Assembly: GCA_963664325.2 (NCBI GenBank) | Contig: CAXXDQ010000007.1 | Span: forward strand, 973,749-1,037,748 | DNA: 64,000 bases | Direction of reading: 5' to 3' | Source of the DNA: Desulfomonilia bacterium | Lineage (GTDB): Bacteria > Desulfobacterota > Desulfomonilia > UBA1062 | Shown: positions 3,017 through 37,241 of the stretch, in pieces | How the letters are laid out: the number at the start of each line of letters is the position of its first letter | Numbering within the stretch: the stretch's first letter is position 1 | The notes under the pieces: generated by a model | Database searches by the model: none | What the model saw: only the letters and a program-made list of their open reading frames with translations | Told to the model about the DNA's origin: nothing | Translations under genes and position numbers: made by a program

Positions 3017-3140
3017 TACAGGGCGTCATAACTTTGCATACCGGCGTCGCTCCTTATCCCGTCATTACGGCGTACGCTTAAAGTACGCCTCATTCCTCGA
3101 TTTCCTCGCTCCCAGGTCTGCTTTGTTCTTACGCCCTGTA
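3017..3140. repeat. About 125-bp palindromic element, copy 2 (opposite orientation)
   Basis: Perfect 10-bp terminal inverted repeat TACAGGGCGT...ACGCCCTGTA; central hairpin GGCGTAC-GCTTAAA-GTACGCC; aligns end to end with the reverse complement of 47592-47717. Confidence 0.7.
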
Positions 3141-3272
3141 AATGTTTTATAGTTTAATCAATCGCTACAGTTGCTAATTTCATATCCGCCCAAAGAGGAT
3201 GGGAAATCTTTTGTTCAATGTAAAACAAAACTCCTCTTTGATCGGAATAATAAAAATAACTATAAAAGATAT

Positions 3273-5177
3273 CTACCTTATCCTTGCGCCCACTCTGGCA
3301 TTCCTGTCGAAACCTATCAGGGACAGACCACCCTCTTCCGTGTCCGTGGCCAGGAGCATGCCGAAGCTCTCGATGCCCATGAGTTTTGCAGGCTTCAGGT
3401 TGGTCACCACCGCGATTTTTTTGCCGGTGAGCTCTTCCGGCGTATAGGCCTTGCCTATGCCGGCCACGATCTGCCTTTCCTCTCCGGTGTCAACCTTCAT
3501 CAGGATCAGCTTGTCGCTCTTGGGCACGCGTTCGGCGCTCATAATTTTGCCCACCCTGATCTCGGCCCTGGCGAATTCGGAGATGTCTATCAGGTTCAGG
3601 GGCTCTTTCTTTTCCTCTGTTTTTGCCGCTTCCGCCACGACCTCCAGAGTTTCCAGCTTTTCCACGCGCGGGAAGAGAACCTTGGGTTCCCGGGTCTTGA
3701 CGCCAGCCCTGATGGACCCGAACACGTTGAGGCTGTCCATATCAAAGCTGCCTTCGGAGCCGATCATGGCAAGAACCCTTTTTGACGCGTCCGGCATTAC
3801 CGGGTATGTCATTACGGCAATGAACCTCAAGCCTTCCATAATGTTGTACATCACGGACCCGAGACGCTTCCTGTCGGTTTTTGCAAGCGTCCACGGCGCG
3901 GATTTGTCTATGTATTTGTTGAGCCCTGAGACCAGCGTCCATGTGGCGGCCAGGGCATTCTGCATCTCTATGGACTTCATCCTAGAACGGTAGTGGATGG
4001 CCGAGCTGAGTGCGAGGTCCCTCAACTGGATGTCTTCCTCGTTATCGGATTCATCGGCATCCGGTATGACGCCTCCGTAATACTTATTCAGCATGCCGAG
4101 GCTCCTGTTGACCAGGTTGCCGAGGTCGTTTGCAAGGTCTGCATTGTAGCGGTCGATCATGGCGTCTTCGGAGAAATTCGAATCGAGCCCGAACACCATG
4201 TCGCGCACAAGATAATAGCGGAAGGCGTCCAGTCCGTATTTTTCCTTCAAATCGAGCGGGTTGATGACATTGCCCAGGCTCTTGCTCATCTTCGCCATCT
4301 CTATGTTCCAGTAGCCGTGTACATTGAGGTGTTTATAAGGTTCAAGCCCGGCGGCCTTGAGCATTGTGGGCCAGTAAACGCCGTGGGGCTTCAGGATGTC
4401 CTTCGCTATCAGGTGCTGCGCCGCACCCCAGTATTCGCTGAAATGCCCGCCGCCAGGATAGCCGATGCCGGTTACATAGTTTATAAGGGCGTCGAACCAG
4501 ACATAGCATACATAGTCATTGTCGAAAGGCAAATCTATGCCCCATGACAGGCGCTTTTTGGGCCGGGAGATGCACAGGTCGTCAAGAGGCTCGCGAAGCA
4601 TCCCGAGCACCTCGTTCCTGTAGCGCTGCGGCCTTATGAAATCCGGGTTGGCGTTAATATGATCTATCAGCCATCCCCGGTATTTTTCCATTTTAAAGAA
4701 ATAGTTCTGTTCCTTGATGTGGGTCGGCTCAGTCCGATGCTGGGGGCATTTCCCGTCTTCAAGCTCGCTGTCGGTTAAAAAGCGTTCGCATCCCAGGCAG
4801 TAGTTGCCGCCGTATTCACCGAAATAGATGTCGCCGGAATCGTACACCTTTTGCAGAATGGACTGCACGACTTTTACATGCTCGGGGTCGGTGGTCCTTA
4901 TAAAGCGGTCCGGCTCCACCGACATTTCGGGAAGTATGGCCCTGAAAAGCGCGCTGTTCTCGTCCGCCAGCTCCTTTGCCGTTTTGCCCAGTTTTTTCGC
5001 CGACTGCACTATCTTGTCGCCGTGTTCGTCGGTGCCGGTCAGGAAAAAGACGTTTTTCCCGGATATCCTGTTGAACCGCGCAAGCACGTCGGCGACTATG
5101 GATGTATAGACATGGCCGATATGCGGCTTGGAGTTAACATAGTAGATTGGGGTGGTTATATAAAAATAGTTCATCAT
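3273..5177 (-). CDS. metG: Methionyl-tRNA synthetase with C-terminal tRNA-binding domain
   Basis: ITTPIYYVN..PHIGH, GTDEHG, KMSKS, C-terminal RQIVAGI/NLKPAKLMG OB fold. Confidence 0.97.
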   Translation of the reverse strand: MMNYFYITTPIYYVNSKPHIGHVYTSIVADVLARFNRISGKNVFFLTGTDEHGDKIVQSAKKLGKTAKELADENSALFRAILPEMSVEPDRFIRTTDPEHVKVVQSILQKVYDSGDIYFGEYGGNYCLGCERFLTDSELEDGKCPQHRTEPTHIKEQNYFFKMEKYRGWLIDHINANPDFIRPQRYRNEVLGMLREPLDDLCISRPKKRLSWGIDLPFDNDYVCYVWFDALINYVTGIGYPGGGHFSEYWGAAQHLIAKDILKPHGVYWPTMLKAAGLEPYKHLNVHGYWNIEMAKMSKSLGNVINPLDLKEKYGLDAFRYYLVRDMVFGLDSNFSEDAMIDRYNADLANDLGNLVNRSLGMLNKYYGGVIPDADESDNEEDIQLRDLALSSAIHYRSRMKSIEMQNALAATWTLVSGLNKYIDKSAPWTLAKTDRKRLGSVMYNIMEGLRFIAVMTYPVMPDASKRVLAMIGSEGSFDMDSLNVFGSIRAGVKTREPKVLFPRVEKLETLEVVAEAAKTEEKKEPLNLIDISEFARAEIRVGKIMSAERVPKSDKLILMKVDTGEERQIVAGIGKAYTPEELTGKKIAVVTNLKPAKLMGIESFGMLLATDTEEGGLSLIGFDRNARVGARIR

Positions 5178-33005: not shown

Positions 33006-33449
33006 TCAAGATATGAATCCCCTCAGGTTTCTTTCAAGCTCTTCCTTGGGCCGGGCGCCAACAAGGCTTTTAACCACTTCTCCGTTTTTGAATACCAGCA
33101 GTGCGGGAATCCCCTGAATGGAATATTTTGAAGGAATGATGCGGTTTTCATCGACGTTCATCTTTGCAAATTTGATCTTTCCTGCATATTGAGCTGAAAG
33201 TTCATCTATAATCGGGCTCATCATCTTGCAGGGGGCGCACCATGATGCCCAGAAGTCTACCACTACAGCGCCGGGAAAGCCCAGAACCTCTTCGGAAAAT
33301 GTTGAATCGGTAACTGTCACCGGTTTTTTTAATGCGGGTTTATCAAGAGGTTCATGGCATTTCCCGCATTTTGCACCAGACCTTGATTTTTCAGAAGGTA
33401 CCCTGTTTTTGGTCCCGCATTGCTGGCACTGGTATATTTTATAATTCAT
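33006..33449 (-). CDS. trxC: Thioredoxin 2 (zinc-finger thioredoxin)
   Basis: CQQC...CGKC zinc ribbon and WCAPC active site. Confidence 0.88.
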   Translation of the reverse strand: MNYKIYQCQQCGTKNRVPSEKSRSGAKCGKCHEPLDKPALKKPVTVTDSTFSEEVLGFPGAVVVDFWASWCAPCKMMSPIIDELSAQYAGKIKFAKMNVDENRIIPSKYSIQGIPALLVFKNGEVVKSLVGARPKEELERNLRGFIS

Positions 33450-33607
33450 CAAGACTTCTCCTTTCACTATATTACGGTCAAACAATTATATAGGGGGTCG
33501 ATTATGCTTTTTCCAGTAGGTGGCAATAAATATGAATGGGCCGGCAGGGAAAAGGCACAGGCCTTTTCCTTTATCTGATTTCCGCCTGCAGCAATTTTAT
33601 TTGGATT

Positions 33608-34363
33608 TTATCTTTTGCGCCTCTCGTCAAAAAGCGCCCCCTGAATTATCGGCGTTATATACATGCCCTGATCCAGATTGAAATATGTACCCCTGACTCC
33701 CCTGTTTTCCCTTCTGAATTTTCTTGCATGTTCTTCCGACCGGAAGAATACCGAGCGTCTTCAGAACGAGTTTATGATACTGGGTTCATTCAACTTGTCA
33801 AAATCGACTATGGGCGCAAATGCGACCGGTGCGGCATCATTTGAAATAACCCTGTATCTCATTGAGCTTTCGATCTCGATAACAAGAGGTTCTTTACAGC
33901 ATGCGCATTCGGTATCAACCGTTACCTTAAGTCCGGTGTTTTTCAAAAGCCCTTGCACGAAGGGCGCCGCAAGCGCGTCAACCGCTCAGGCGGCATAAAT
34001 GTGCTCTCCCGTGCTGAAAGTAAGCCTGTGAGGGGTCTTCTCGACGGTGACCGGATAGGCCCATGTAACCTCCCCGTCAGGATTCCTGTAGAGAAAGGTC
34101 ATGTTTTTTTCAAGCTCGTCAAGTATTTCAATAACCCGGCCGGTTTCGATCTGCAGGGCCTGCGAGATATGAACGGGCGTTAACGGAACACCTTTAGCAG
34201 CGATCTCGGTTACAACAAAATCCCTCACTTTATGGTGGTCATCAGTCATGAAGGCAAGCCTTGCGGCATTAAGCTTTGACATGTCGCCGATCTGAGCCTT
34301 CCATGCAAAGCCGGGTATTCTTAAAAGATATTTCCAAACACCGAGAAGAAGGGCGTCTTTCAT
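33608..34363 (-). CDS. MerB-like organometallic lyase, predicted selenoprotein with two Sec (U126, U201), 251 aa
   Basis: One frame read through UGA at 33986-33988 (IYAA-U-AVDAL) and 33761-33763 (INSF-U-RRSVFFRSEEHA) to TAA at 33608; WAYPVT..TPH MerB-type motif upstream. Confidence 0.85.
33731..33748 (-). promoter_or_regulatory. SECIS-like hairpin after the second UGA
   Basis: mRNA UUCUUCC-GGUC-GGAAGAA beginning 13 nt after UGA. Confidence 0.7.
33949..33965 (-). promoter_or_regulatory. SECIS-like hairpin after the first UGA
   Basis: mRNA GCCCUU-CGUGC-AAGGGC beginning 21 nt after UGA. Confidence 0.7.
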
Positions 34364-34580
34364 GCCAAACCTCCATATTTATTTTATAATTAACCCTATT
34401 TGGAAAAAAGAAAAGTTATTTCATAACAATAATAAAAAAACATGCCGTATCTCATGATTCAACATGCTGACGATATTTGACGGTCTGAGTTCTCCATCGG
34501 CTGAGCATACGTTGTACCGTCATATGCACATTGACAAAACCTTATTCGGCTTTATTATCAGAAACACGAGGTGGTGAACG

Positions 34581-35307: not shown

Positions 35308-36450
35308 TTAAGATATCCTTGAGAAATCCCGGCCGCGTTCCCTGAGCATACGGCTTCCTGCTTCGGTCCTGGTTTCCGGAATATCTTCGCCTGTCTCATT
35401 TCTTCTTTGAAGTTTGCGGGACTGCATCGGGCATTTGTGGGCGCATACACCGCAGCCTATGCACTTTTCCCGGTCATATTCAAAGACCTTTCCGGCATCC
35501 TGTATTTTACATATTGACCCGTTTGAAGGTGGAATCTTTTTGATTTTTACAGCTTCGACCGGGCATCGTTTTTCACACAGCCCGCATAGTTTGCACGTTT
35601 CGGCATTATGCACAACCACATAGTTCGAGCGCTGGTGTCCGCGTAAGATCGACGGCAACACTGCAGCCCGTTCAAGGAAAAGACAGCAGCATGAGCAGCA
35701 GTTGCAGATTGTGTCAATCTTCGTCTTATAGTTGCTGATGCCGTGAACCAGACCTGCATCCGCAGCGTCCTTCAATATTTCAAGCGTCTGCTGCTTTGAT
35801 ATCTCCTTACCCATGCCGTATTTGAGCATATACCTTCCGAGACTGCCGAAATGCAGGCAGTTCATGGTAACGTGACTGCATTTCTCAAAGTCCGGGTCAA
35901 GATTGTGCCTGTGTCTGCAATCGCAGGTTGAAACTATGAAAAAGTCTTCTTTGTCGATGAATGCGAGTATATCCTCATAGGGCAGTATCTGTTTTGTATC
36001 TTTGATTGTTTCCGCAATCGGGATGGCGCGCAGTCCTTTTGTTGGATGTTTCATCATTTCATGCGACATATGGTTGATGTAATACCGATGGGCCAGCGAT
36101 GCATACTCCCTGTTCAACTCATCATTGATTCCCACCCATCCCGGTACCTGGAAGTTCGCAAAGTTGTTGTCATTAAGGAAATATCCTGGCCCGGACTTTC
36201 CCTGAGCCTCGAAAATAAAACCTTTTTTTATCAGCGGTTCCATCTTCGCTATCAATTCGTCTGCAGACATATGGAATTTTTCCTTAAGCTGCTCCATCGT
36301 ATGCGGCATGAAAGGAAAGGCCGAGAGAAAGGCGGCTTCGTCCGGAGTACACCTCAATTTGAGCAGCCGCGTGAAATCTTCAGGGGCGGGCACATCGTAA
36401 ATCCACGTTTTATATCTCTCAATCAGCGAATCATATGGTCTGTTTTCCAT
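35308..36450 (-). CDS. 4Fe-4S dicluster protein with N-terminal HTH
   Basis: CDCR, ICNCCSCCC, two CxxCxxCxxxCP motifs. Confidence 0.85.
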   Translation of the reverse strand: MENRPYDSLIERYKTWIYDVPAPEDFTRLLKLRCTPDEAAFLSAFPFMPHTMEQLKEKFHMSADELIAKMEPLIKKGFIFEAQGKSGPGYFLNDNNFANFQVPGWVGINDELNREYASLAHRYYINHMSHEMMKHPTKGLRAIPIAETIKDTKQILPYEDILAFIDKEDFFIVSTCDCRHRHNLDPDFEKCSHVTMNCLHFGSLGRYMLKYGMGKEISKQQTLEILKDAADAGLVHGISNYKTKIDTICNCCSCCCLFLERAAVLPSILRGHQRSNYVVVHNAETCKLCGLCEKRCPVEAVKIKKIPPSNGSICKIQDAGKVFEYDREKCIGCGVCAHKCPMQSRKLQRRNETGEDIPETRTEAGSRMLRERGRDFSRIS

Positions 36451-36470
36451 TTTTCCCCCTTTATACAGGG

Positions 36471-37241
36471 CTACCCCAGGCATGCGGGACAAACGCCTAT
36501 GCATTTGAAGCAGTGGTATTCGAAGCCTATGAAATTCGCCTGATAAAGGCTCAGGATAGCCGGGTCTTTTAAAAGCGCCTTTTTACCCTCAAGGTCCGCC
36601 TTGATGAAATTCCTCAAATAGCCTATCAGTCCTCCGATTCCGTTGGGCTGAGAGACCTTCAGACACTTGAACATGTCGGTTTTGCCCTCCTCGTCAAGGG
36701 CCCGGCCTGGGCAAGATTCTACGCACAGGCCGCAACCATTGCACAGGTCATCCGTTACGCGCTCATCCGATTCAAGCGGCAGAGAGGTAAGTACGGCGGT
36801 AAATATAATGCGGCTGCCGAACCTGGGATTGATGACCAGATTGTGCCTTCCGAAAACTCCCAGCCCGGCTGCGACGGCCGCGTGCCTCAGCGAGATGTCG
36901 CCCGTAAGCCCCATGACCGGCGGCTTCATATCAAGTGGATATGACGGAGCAACAGGAGCCGCCTTTGTCCTGAAAGCATCTTCAACAAAGCGCGAGATGA
37001 GATAGCTGTTTTTTCTCATCAAATCCATCATGCCCAGGCGCGCAGCCATGCTTGTTCGGTTGTTCGGGCTTTCGATGGCCCCGTCAATCTCCCTGTAGCC
37101 GGTCACGATAATCGATCTGACGCCGGGTAAAATCGCATCCGGCGCCATCGCCCCTTTCAGCTCATAATCGCCGACCGAGGCAAACCCCACGACATCGGCC
37201 CCGAGACCCAGGCAGAAACTGCTGATTTTTTCTTTCTCCAT
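36471..37241 (-). CDS. Epoxyqueuosine reductase (QueG)/reductive dehalogenase-like Fe-S cobalamin protein
   Basis: GADVVGFA, SLRHAAVAAGLG..G, PRFGS, CNGCGLCVESCP, CFKCIGVCP. Confidence 0.8.
   Translation of the reverse strand: MEKEKISSFCLGLGADVVGFASVGDYELKGAMAPDAILPGVRSIIVTGYREIDGAIESPNNRTSMAARLGMMDLMRKNSYLISRFVEDAFRTKAAPVAPSYPLDMKPPVMGLTGDISLRHAAVAAGLGVFGRHNLVINPRFGSRIIFTAVLTSLPLESDERVTDDLCNGCGLCVESCPGRALDEEGKTDMFKCLKVSQPNGIGGLIGYLRNFIKADLEGKKALLKDPAILSLYQANFIGFEYHCFKCIGVCPACLG

Follow-up and report, generated by a model that had tools for sequence, protein, structure and literature searches.

Does a gene that is interrupted twice by UGA encode one protein and, if so, what might that protein do? 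The question is raised by a stretch of 64,000 nucleotides (the window) from a Desulfomonilia bacterium (assembly GCA_963664325.2, contig CAXXDQ010000007.1, positions 973,749 to 1,037,748), whose minus strand carries, between window positions 33,608 and 34,363, a reading frame for a relative of the organomercurial lyase MerB with two in-frame TGA codons. Our analyses indicate that the gene belongs to a widespread family of selenoproteins in which selenocysteine (Sec) is predicted at both positions occupied by the catalytic cysteines of MerB, and they point, with less certainty, to the cleavage of carbon–metal bonds. Methylmercury in food webs reflects the balance between microbial methylation, which depends on hgcAB, and demethylation, and the known demethylase, MerB, sits in mer operons. 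How methylmercury is broken down enzymatically in anoxic sediments is, to our knowledge, less clear.

Translation of the locus with TGA read as Sec (U) gave a single frame of 251 amino acids containing exactly two odd codons, U126 and U201. This frame had been proposed in an earlier note on this DNA, made by a model from the letters and a list of open reading frames (ORFs), and all of the peptide strings given in that note were present in our translation. The note had also observed that the ORF track splits the gene; under translation table 11 the frame breaks into pieces of 125 amino acids (33986–34363) and 65 amino acids (33761–33958). Besides the two TGAs, the window copy has no internal stop or frameshift. 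TGC or TGT at these sites, named in the note as the letters that would speak against Sec, did not appear in contigs from three sequencing runs of one sample, perhaps the window's own source, which had no other letters at the two TGA sites. The sequencing runs listed for this stretch included none from RNA. Wholesale recoding of TGA in these genomes was considered and rejected, as the adjoining thioredoxin gene stops at TGA and several orthologues of the two-Sec gene themselves end in ...FGW-TGA.

Comparison with other genomes revealed that both TGA codons are conserved. In a six-frame search (E ≤ 1e-5) of 401 genomes from the same phylum, 34 genomes were matched, and 25 genomes besides the organism's own were found to contain a full-length orthologue, at 43–55% identity, with two in-frame TGAs. 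All 52 codons at the two U columns of the resulting 26-gene alignment were TGA (a third TGA, in the orthologue of genome G169, is its stop codon). Conservation runs past both UGAs, because residues after each TGA rank among the best conserved in the protein: Asp129, Cys153, the motifs WAYPVT and PFVQG, Phe200, and Phe207, Ser209 and Glu210 of the FF(W/R)SEE stretch were invariant in 26/26. A pattern scan with one genome per species then gave 249 loci coding for a relative. Of these, the 80 best, all from metagenome-assembled genomes (MAGs), were fetched, and each of them had TGA at both sites (75 by regular expression and five by eye) together with a counterpart of Asp129. Combined with the 26 aligned genes they form a set of 106 loci, or 98 distinct genes, as eight of the 80 were identical to loci already in the set. 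The labels of the 80 loci span about ten phyla, and include Chloroflexota (Anaerolineae and Dehalococcoidia), Thermodesulfobacteriota/“delta proteobacterium”, Bacteroidota, Acidobacteriota, Spirochaetales, Gemmatimonadota, Rokuibacteriota, Nitrospirota, Margulisiibacteriota, Binatia, and others.

The earlier note had proposed looking for homologues with Cys or UGA at both positions, and those recovered had TGA at both sites in 106/106 loci and Cys at site 1 in five further proteins. The latter are five of 29 homologous proteins in public databases, and each ends exactly before site 2. The other 24 carry Trp at both sites and come from short metagenome contigs; most likely these are TGA codons called under a code in which TGA is Trp, the nearest locus with known DNA being 86% identical to the Trp-bearing proteins. 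Gene calls of this kind could seed false Trp entries in family alignments. Many other database matches span only the first half of the query, and public calls mostly stop at the first UGA. Standard annotation therefore misses the gene, as had been anticipated, either by truncation or by reading Trp at both sites.

Downstream of both UGAs there is a hairpin with a GU-containing loop, as had also been described, at a distance of 20 nt for the first and 12 nt for the second (Table 1). The loops of bacterial selenocysteine insertion sequence (SECIS) elements lie ~16–37 nt after the UGA and have a conserved G/U, and the loop of the Escherichia coli fdhF element is likewise GGUC. In hairpin 2, a weaker lower stem extends the structure to about 33724–33755. 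Codon usage in the 26 orthologues suggests that the RNA of these regions is constrained in addition to the protein. Conserved residues outside of the hairpins were encoded by two to five synonymous codons (e.g., four each for Ala102, Val105, and Thr106, and three for Pro104). The codons overlying hairpin 1 were fixed (Pro134 CCC in 25/26, Phe135 TTC in 26/26, Val136 GTG in 26/26, Gln137 CAA in 25/26, and Gly138 GGG in 26/26), and both exceptions change a Watson–Crick pair to G-U. The same was observed in hairpin 2, with Phe206 as TTC in 25/25, Phe207 as TTC in 26/26, Glu210 as GAA in 26/26, and Glu211 as GAA in 22/25.

Over the 106 loci, the CGUGC loop and the inner five pairs of hairpin 1 were intact in every sequence, and in hairpin 2 the GGUC loop was retained in 105/106 and all seven pairs in 102/106. 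The closing pair of hairpin 2 (22-27) was found to covary, being U-A in 15 and C-G in 11 of the 26 orthologues and never unpaired, and U-A in 87 and C-G in 19 of the 106 loci with no mismatch. This change is visible at the protein level, since codon 208 specifies either Trp (as UGG) or Arg (as CGG), and the Ser codon after it ends in the A or G that matches (UGG/UCA in 86 loci, CGG/UCG in 19, and UGU/UCA in one, in which base 22 is still U). In the family tree, the C-G state is spread over at least four distinct clades. In addition, contigs of other organisms in the sample mentioned above share with the window only 33718–33748 and 33945–33979, which are the two hairpins. The fixed codons and the paired change thus indicate that the hairpins are under selection as RNA. 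As a side observation, the other organisms in that sample have a sequencing depth 10–40 times higher, with 193–197 unrelated letters between the two hairpin matches, and several holders of the gene appear to share this habitat.

The Sec machinery of the host was sought in its genome (4.3 Mb, nine contigs, 95.6% complete). The earlier note had linked its proposal to the presence of selA, selB, selC, and selD, and three of these were recovered in one piece with scores over their cut-offs: selA (507 bits, over its cut-off), a tRNA-Sec (67.5 bits against a cut-off of 47, anticodon tca by ARAGORN), and selD (380 bits), which has one in-frame TGA of its own and likely encodes a Sec-containing SelD. 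The fourth, selB, also scored over its cut-off (275 bits) but is frameshifted in this assembly, with residues 1–45 in one frame and 45–579 in another (...GFASL/LPSGERVG...). This shift of 1 nt near codon 45 may be an assembly error; if it is a real lesion, it would stop Sec decoding in this strain. The shift is one of several observations that weigh against the decoding of both UGAs. The folding energies of the single window sequences are no better than those of shuffled sequences (z +0.94/+0.56 for hairpin 1 and −0.82/−1.23 for hairpin 2, with +0.94 and −0.82 at 65 nt), and therefore the hairpins by themselves are not beyond chance. Hairpin 1 was invariant and without covariation among the 26 orthologues, and a Cys form at site 2 was not found inside the two-Sec family, Cys at that site being seen only in MerB itself and in more distant MerB-like proteins.

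These observations could be taken together with the broken frame under table 11 and with the public gene calls that mostly end at the first UGA to mean that the UGAs are stops, or are no longer decoded in this strain, and that the locus is a decaying gene yielding a 125-residue fragment or nothing at all. We consider this extremely improbable, as the TGAs, the protein downstream of them, and the hairpins are conserved across about ten phyla, the window copy has acquired no other lesion, the selD of the same genome also keeps an in-frame TGA, and the shift in selB is of one base only. We are highly confident that the gene represents a real family of selenoproteins with two Sec residues. In the mechanism we envisage, UGA126 and UGA201 would both be decoded as Sec by the ribosome in a SelB-dependent manner, each by way of its own SECIS hairpin.

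The relationship of the protein to MerB, also proposed in the earlier note, was borne out by sequence and by predicted structure. Residues 106–234 matched the Pfam MerB family (PF03243) with 55.3 bits against a cut-off of 27, and a profile of the 26 sequences matched PDB sequences of MerB2 (5C17, E 1.9e-8) and MerB (3F2G and 1S6L, ~3e-7), with a range of 2e-8 to 8e-6. In the profile alignment, the predicted Sec126 is equivalent to Cys96 of MerB, Asp129 to Asp99, Cys153 to the structural Cys117, and Phe200-Sec201 to Phe158-Cys159, so that Sec126, Asp129, and Sec201 occupy the places of the catalytic Cys96, Asp99, and Cys159, and the ligand-x-x-Asp and Phe-ligand motifs correspond at every residue. 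AlphaFold, supplied with the alignment, gave a model with a predicted local distance difference test score (pLDDT) of 87.6 and a predicted template modeling score (pTM) of 0.88. The top 11 Foldseek matches of this model in the PDB were all MerB or MerB2, with E values of 2.5e-12 to 1e-7 and target-normalised template modeling (TM) scores of 0.62–0.81. The next matches were winged-helix regulators that align with the N-terminal domain only (E > 0.02).

Despite sharing this fold, the protein is not a canonical MerB (PDB 3F0O, 3F0P, and 1S6L; MerB2, 5C17). It has only 17–20% identity to MerB and about 35 extra N-terminal residues, both of the catalytic Cys are replaced by predicted Sec, and there is no mer operon around the gene. 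In the NCBIfam scan no model was over its cut-off for the window protein, the MerB models NF033555 and NF009710 scoring 46.9 against 200 and 53.7 against 193, and the canonical MerB model was over its cut-off in none of the 401 phylum genomes.

A MerB-like selenoprotein, SaoL, has been described previously, and the earlier note had left open whether the two-Sec form belongs with it. According to the available part of the preprint by Haft and Gwadz (bioRxiv 10.1101/2022.07.06.499078), the single Sec of SaoL stands in a CU dipeptide at the position of Cys159, Cys99 and Asp102 are retained, and the protein is the marker of a nine-gene SAO locus (saoDTECXBPAL) that includes an ABC transporter. The likenesses are considerable: as far as that source goes, both proteins have the MerB fold, Sec at the Cys159 position, and Asp three residues after the first metal ligand, and both genes occur in anaerobes and are truncated by gene callers. 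However, the two-Sec protein has predicted Sec at both positions, with FU at the second, whereas SaoL keeps Cys at the Cys96 position, and it is encoded by a stand-alone gene rather than within an SAO locus. The SaoL model (NF040728, cut-off 140) gave the window protein 50.1 bits (44 bits in the genome search) and members of the family 43–56 bits, while in the 401 phylum genomes it recovered three true SaoL proteins at 148–176 bits; in the organism's own genome this model found no SaoL. No importer of the ATP-binding cassette (ABC) type recurs in the 106 loci, in a neighbourhood survey that did not run the individual Sao family models, and the only recurrent ABC protein is of the ABC-F type, in 7/106 loci.

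A quick maximum-likelihood tree of 122 rows, with long outgroup branches and an arbitrary root, united all 106 two-Sec genes with the five proteins that have Cys at site 1, in one group on a long branch (Shimodaira–Hasegawa approximate likelihood ratio test, SH-aLRT, 94), and set SaoL apart as a group of its own (SH-aLRT 97). Those five proteins do not cluster but lie dispersed within the clade (five changes), as expected for repeated exchange of Sec and Cys. Based on score, motif (FU and two Sec in 106/106), neighbourhood, and tree, SaoL was rejected as the identity of the two-Sec form, and the open question is thereby settled.

The literature was searched for other proteins of this kind. No MerB-like selenoprotein other than SaoL was found, in a search that left out supplements and two 2025 papers, by Haft and Tolstoy (mSystems) and by Xiao and Zhang (deep-Sep), which may bear on novelty. 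The accessible portion of a 2026 review of 119 selenoprotein families or subfamilies gives SaoL as “CU, 1 Sec”, that of a 2022 review lists one MerB-like family, and MerB is not mentioned in the part of the BSepDB paper that was available. On this basis, the family differs from SaoL in its predicted diselenol metal site, its own pair of SECIS elements, its different genomic setting, and its much wider distribution.

What the protein does can be approached by analogy with MerB. We propose that the two selenolates would bind the metal of an organometal compound, that Asp129 would donate a proton so that the carbon group is released (methane, in the case of methylmercury), and that the metal ion would stay held between the two selenium atoms until it is taken over by thiols, by sulfide, or by a partner whose gene does not adjoin this one. 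Selenium could plausibly have been chosen for its lower pKa and because, as a softer ligand, it may hold its own against thiols and sulfide. According to a review, selone mimics of organomercurial lyase cleave the Hg–C bond faster than thiones (PMC11639659). We lean, with moderate confidence, toward reading the protein as a diselenol carbon–metal lyase, a MerB-fold selenoprotein for which methylmercury or another organomercurial would be the leading candidate substrate, and we hold the broader assignment as a carbon–metal lyase to be somewhat probable. Methylmercury has this place among the candidates because the gene is stand-alone, often lies behind a MarR or MerR regulator, and is enriched in genomes with hgcA. 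That it is the physiological substrate is a tentative suggestion.

Surveys of the neighbouring genes are consistent with a stand-alone gene. In the 106 loci, a MarR-family gene was observed in 11, always upstream and on the same strand, and a MerR-family gene in 10, eight of them upstream on the same strand, i.e., such regulators accompany the gene in 21/106 loci, or about a fifth; by NCBIfam, these neighbours are equivalogs neither of Hg-MerR nor of any named regulator. As the earlier note had reported for merA, merR, and merT, none of merA, merT, merP, or an Hg-type merR was found within about 8 kb on either side of the window gene, and none recurs in the 106 loci; the best merA match in the genome had 346.5 bits against a cut-off of 454.45.

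A gene that sits alone behind a MarR or MerR regulator, as small detoxification genes do, might also encode a metal-binding protein that is not an enzyme, e.g., a high-affinity trap, chaperone, or sensor that uses its diselenol pair to capture soft metal ions such as Hg(II), Cu(I), Cd, or Ag. Two adjacent selenolates would hold Hg(II) very tightly, and no acceptor for the metal is encoded nearby. A pure binding site has no need of a proton donor, however, and the counterpart of that residue, Asp129, is invariant in 26/26 and present in 80/80; the whole MerB catalytic core is kept, including the Phe before the second Sec, and the stoichiometric use of two costly Sec residues would seem wasteful. 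For these reasons we regard a role in metal binding alone as improbable.

To gain additional data on a possible connection with mercury, we searched for the mercury methylation genes. The organism's own genome contains hgcA (Table 1), with hgcB downstream and an ArsR-type gene upstream, and the host is thus a putative mercury methylator. The cap helix of its HgcA reads NVWCAAGR, which is missed by a common motif ending in K; a six-frame search with a cap-helix motif gave no match in the genome, a false negative, and it was the family model that found hgcA. In the phylum sample, hgcA scored over its cut-off in 14 of 26 holders of the two-Sec gene (15 if two contig-end fragments in genome G297 are counted) versus 105 of 375 non-holders, an odds ratio of 3.0 (Fisher p 0.008). 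The search was extended to 50 of the 72 distinct named holder genomes, for which there is no comparison group, and 17 of the 50 had hgcA. The Chloroflexota-labelled holders among those 50 had hgcA in 8/26, compared with 2/161 in an even sample of the phylum (p 2e-6). An even sample of one Chloroflexota order (86 genomes) had hgcA in 0/4 holders and 0/82 non-holders, too few holders for a comparison. Overall, these data make an association of hgcA with the two-Sec gene suggestive.

Several results speak against the assignment as a lyase of organomercurials. The hgcA gene was under its cut-off or absent in 12/26 and 33/50 holders, about three fifths, and 105/375 non-holders also carry it; moreover, the holders were picked for the quality of their match, kinship among the genomes makes them non-independent, and both traits are typical of anaerobes. 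The recurrent neighbours of the gene in the 106 loci include neither a metal transporter nor a reductase. A diselenolate should hold Hg very tightly, which makes its release a difficulty for this reading, and the selenium pair could favor another metal or metalloid.

The last of these points leads to a reading in which fold and Sec residues are as we propose but the substrate is an organometal or organometalloid other than mercury, such as methylated arsenic, tin, lead, tellurium, or selenium, and the association with mercury is incidental. The authors of the SaoL study, in the available part of their preprint, regarded Sec at the metal site as making an organomercurial substrate uncertain and noted that MerB binds other metals (bioRxiv 10.1101/2022.07.06.499078). 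Such a substrate would be in keeping with the many holders that lack hgcA, with the missing mer genes nearby, and with the lack of a merA over its cut-off in the genome. In 3/106 loci, moreover, the gene directly upstream encodes a small S-adenosylmethionine (SAM) methyltransferase, for which arsenite methyltransferases gave the best matches, all of them below threshold. This link is rare, however, too rare to define a system, and the scores are 50–73 bits against cut-offs of 263–575. In contrast, the enrichment of hgcA points to mercury, and the Cys-x-x-Asp...Cys geometry is the one known for Hg–C cleavage. We judge a non-mercury substrate to be unlikely, and organomercurials remain our leading candidates.

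The features of the locus are collected in Table 1.

Table 1. Features of the two-Sec gene and its surroundings in the window, and related genes elsewhere in the same genome (positions beginning with G000)
Feature	Position	Strand	Remarks
Two-Sec MerB-like coding sequence, 251 aa	33608..34363	-	ATG 34363-34361, TAA 33610-33608; single frame if TGA = U
Shine-Dalgarno-like GGAGG	34370..34374	-	6 nt before ATG, read from the sequence
UGA codon 126 (predicted Sec)	33986..33988	-	Aligned with MerB Cys96; U-x-x-D motif with Asp129
UGA codon 201 (predicted Sec)	33761..33763	-	Aligned with MerB Cys159 and with the Sec of SaoL CU; preceded by invariant Phe
SECIS-like hairpin 1	33949..33965	-	6-bp stem GCCCUU/AAGGGC, loop CGUGC; overlies PFVQG codons
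SECIS-like hairpin 2	33731..33748	-	7-bp stem UUCUUCC/GGAAGAA, loop GGUC; overlies FF(R/W)SEE codons
11-bp hairpin	33546-33571		Spacer between two-Sec gene and thioredoxin gene
Thioredoxin 2 type gene	33006..33485	-	Zinc ribbon and WCAPC; 122-158 nt downstream of two-Sec gene, same strand
~390-aa protein (398 aa in window)	35308-36504	-	C-terminal 2x[4Fe-4S]; N-terminal part unassigned
QueG/reductive-dehalogenase-like Fe-S protein	36471-37241		After the ~390-aa Fe-S protein; followed by a TetR regulator
hgcA	G000:C6:130316-131293	minus	403.8 bits, cut-off 275 (L164 1124-3033 including the hgcAB pair)
selD	G000:C3:477478-478392		One in-frame TGA
selB	G000:C4:883195-885037	minus (in L011)	L011 about 3116-3352; 1-nt frameshift

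The thioredoxin gene next to the two-Sec gene deserves comment, as thioredoxin is a possible reductant for the protein. Taken further, this neighbour suggests a redox enzyme that would cycle between diselenide and diselenol, be reduced by thioredoxin, and act on an oxidised substrate, with the MerB fold serving only as a scaffold. The alignment with MerB would place the two Sec in contact, and most bacterial selenoproteins are redox proteins according to reviews (PMC9312934). Yet none of the 18 listed clusters of recurrent neighbours, which go down to 3/106 loci in size, is a thioredoxin, the protein is without a CxxC- or UxxC-type motif, its two Sec residues being 75 residues apart, and the invariant Asp and the MerB pocket would be left unexplained. 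A redox function is thus very improbable, and the carbon–metal lyase is the reading we retain.

The other neighbours of the gene were rare or generic over the 106 loci. Upstream in the window are an ORF of 166 amino acids on the other strand to which no family was assigned, and then the two Fe-S proteins and the TetR regulator of Table 1; a short-chain dehydrogenase/reductase (SDR) is also among the neighbours. The ~390-residue Fe-S protein lies near the gene in 5/106 loci (also at L040:126-1292 and L043:2447-3607) and is too rare to define a system.

If the proposed activity is real, a diselenol lyase would let methylators and their neighbours demethylate methylmercury in a sulfidic cytoplasm, where winning the metal from competing thiols and sulfide would require selenium, and the abundance of the enzyme in sediments would help to set net methylmercury production. 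The family offers a concrete candidate for a demethylation enzyme: a stand-alone MerB-fold protein with a predicted diselenol site, enriched in genomes with hgcA, missed by standard annotation, and present in no fewer than 249 species-level genomes of anaerobes from sediment and groundwater. Whether it is the long-sought methylmercury-degrading enzyme of anaerobes without a mer operon is a more doubtful matter, and we put this forward as speculation. For selenoprotein biology, the family would place two Sec on one metal site and two different SECIS elements in one short gene, a clear case in which RNA structure and protein motif constrain the same codons. Gene callers and family libraries need a model of the family if metagenome surveys of mercury cycling are to include it in their counts.

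The origin of the window copy may lie outside of its own phylum. In the tree it groups with two MAGs labelled Bacteriovoracaceae (71–73% identity; among L052, L053, and L058), next to Chloroflexota sequences, and a six-frame search found the gene in none of six other genomes of the organism's own family. Because of this placement and this patchy occurrence, the tree hints at horizontal transfer of the window copy.

During these searches we noted additional MerB-like proteins in the same phylum, outside of the two-Sec family. Those of genomes G380, G164, and G356 (L149, L151, and L153) have Cys at site 1 and Sec predicted at site 2 (CALDA...SLU), and that of G036 (L148) has the form CAVDG...YTU, in which Cys again comes first and the predicted Sec second. 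They are like the two-Sec proteins in having Sec at the Cys159 position, but unlike them in having Cys first, and they group away from the two-Sec family in the tree; no description of them was found in the literature searched. Genome G381 (L147) has a Cys/Cys MerB-like relative. In genome G169, which also has a member of the main family, a distant second paralogue with two predicted Sec was observed (L143, G169:C44:30495-30878), in which Glu takes the place of Asp (U-G-I-E) and the second site reads ...RAU. The MerB-like copies of G380 and G381 adjoin genes for heavy-metal-associated (HMA) domain proteins and MerA-like or MerR genes, and Sec-containing homologues of MerB may therefore also occur inside mer-like loci.

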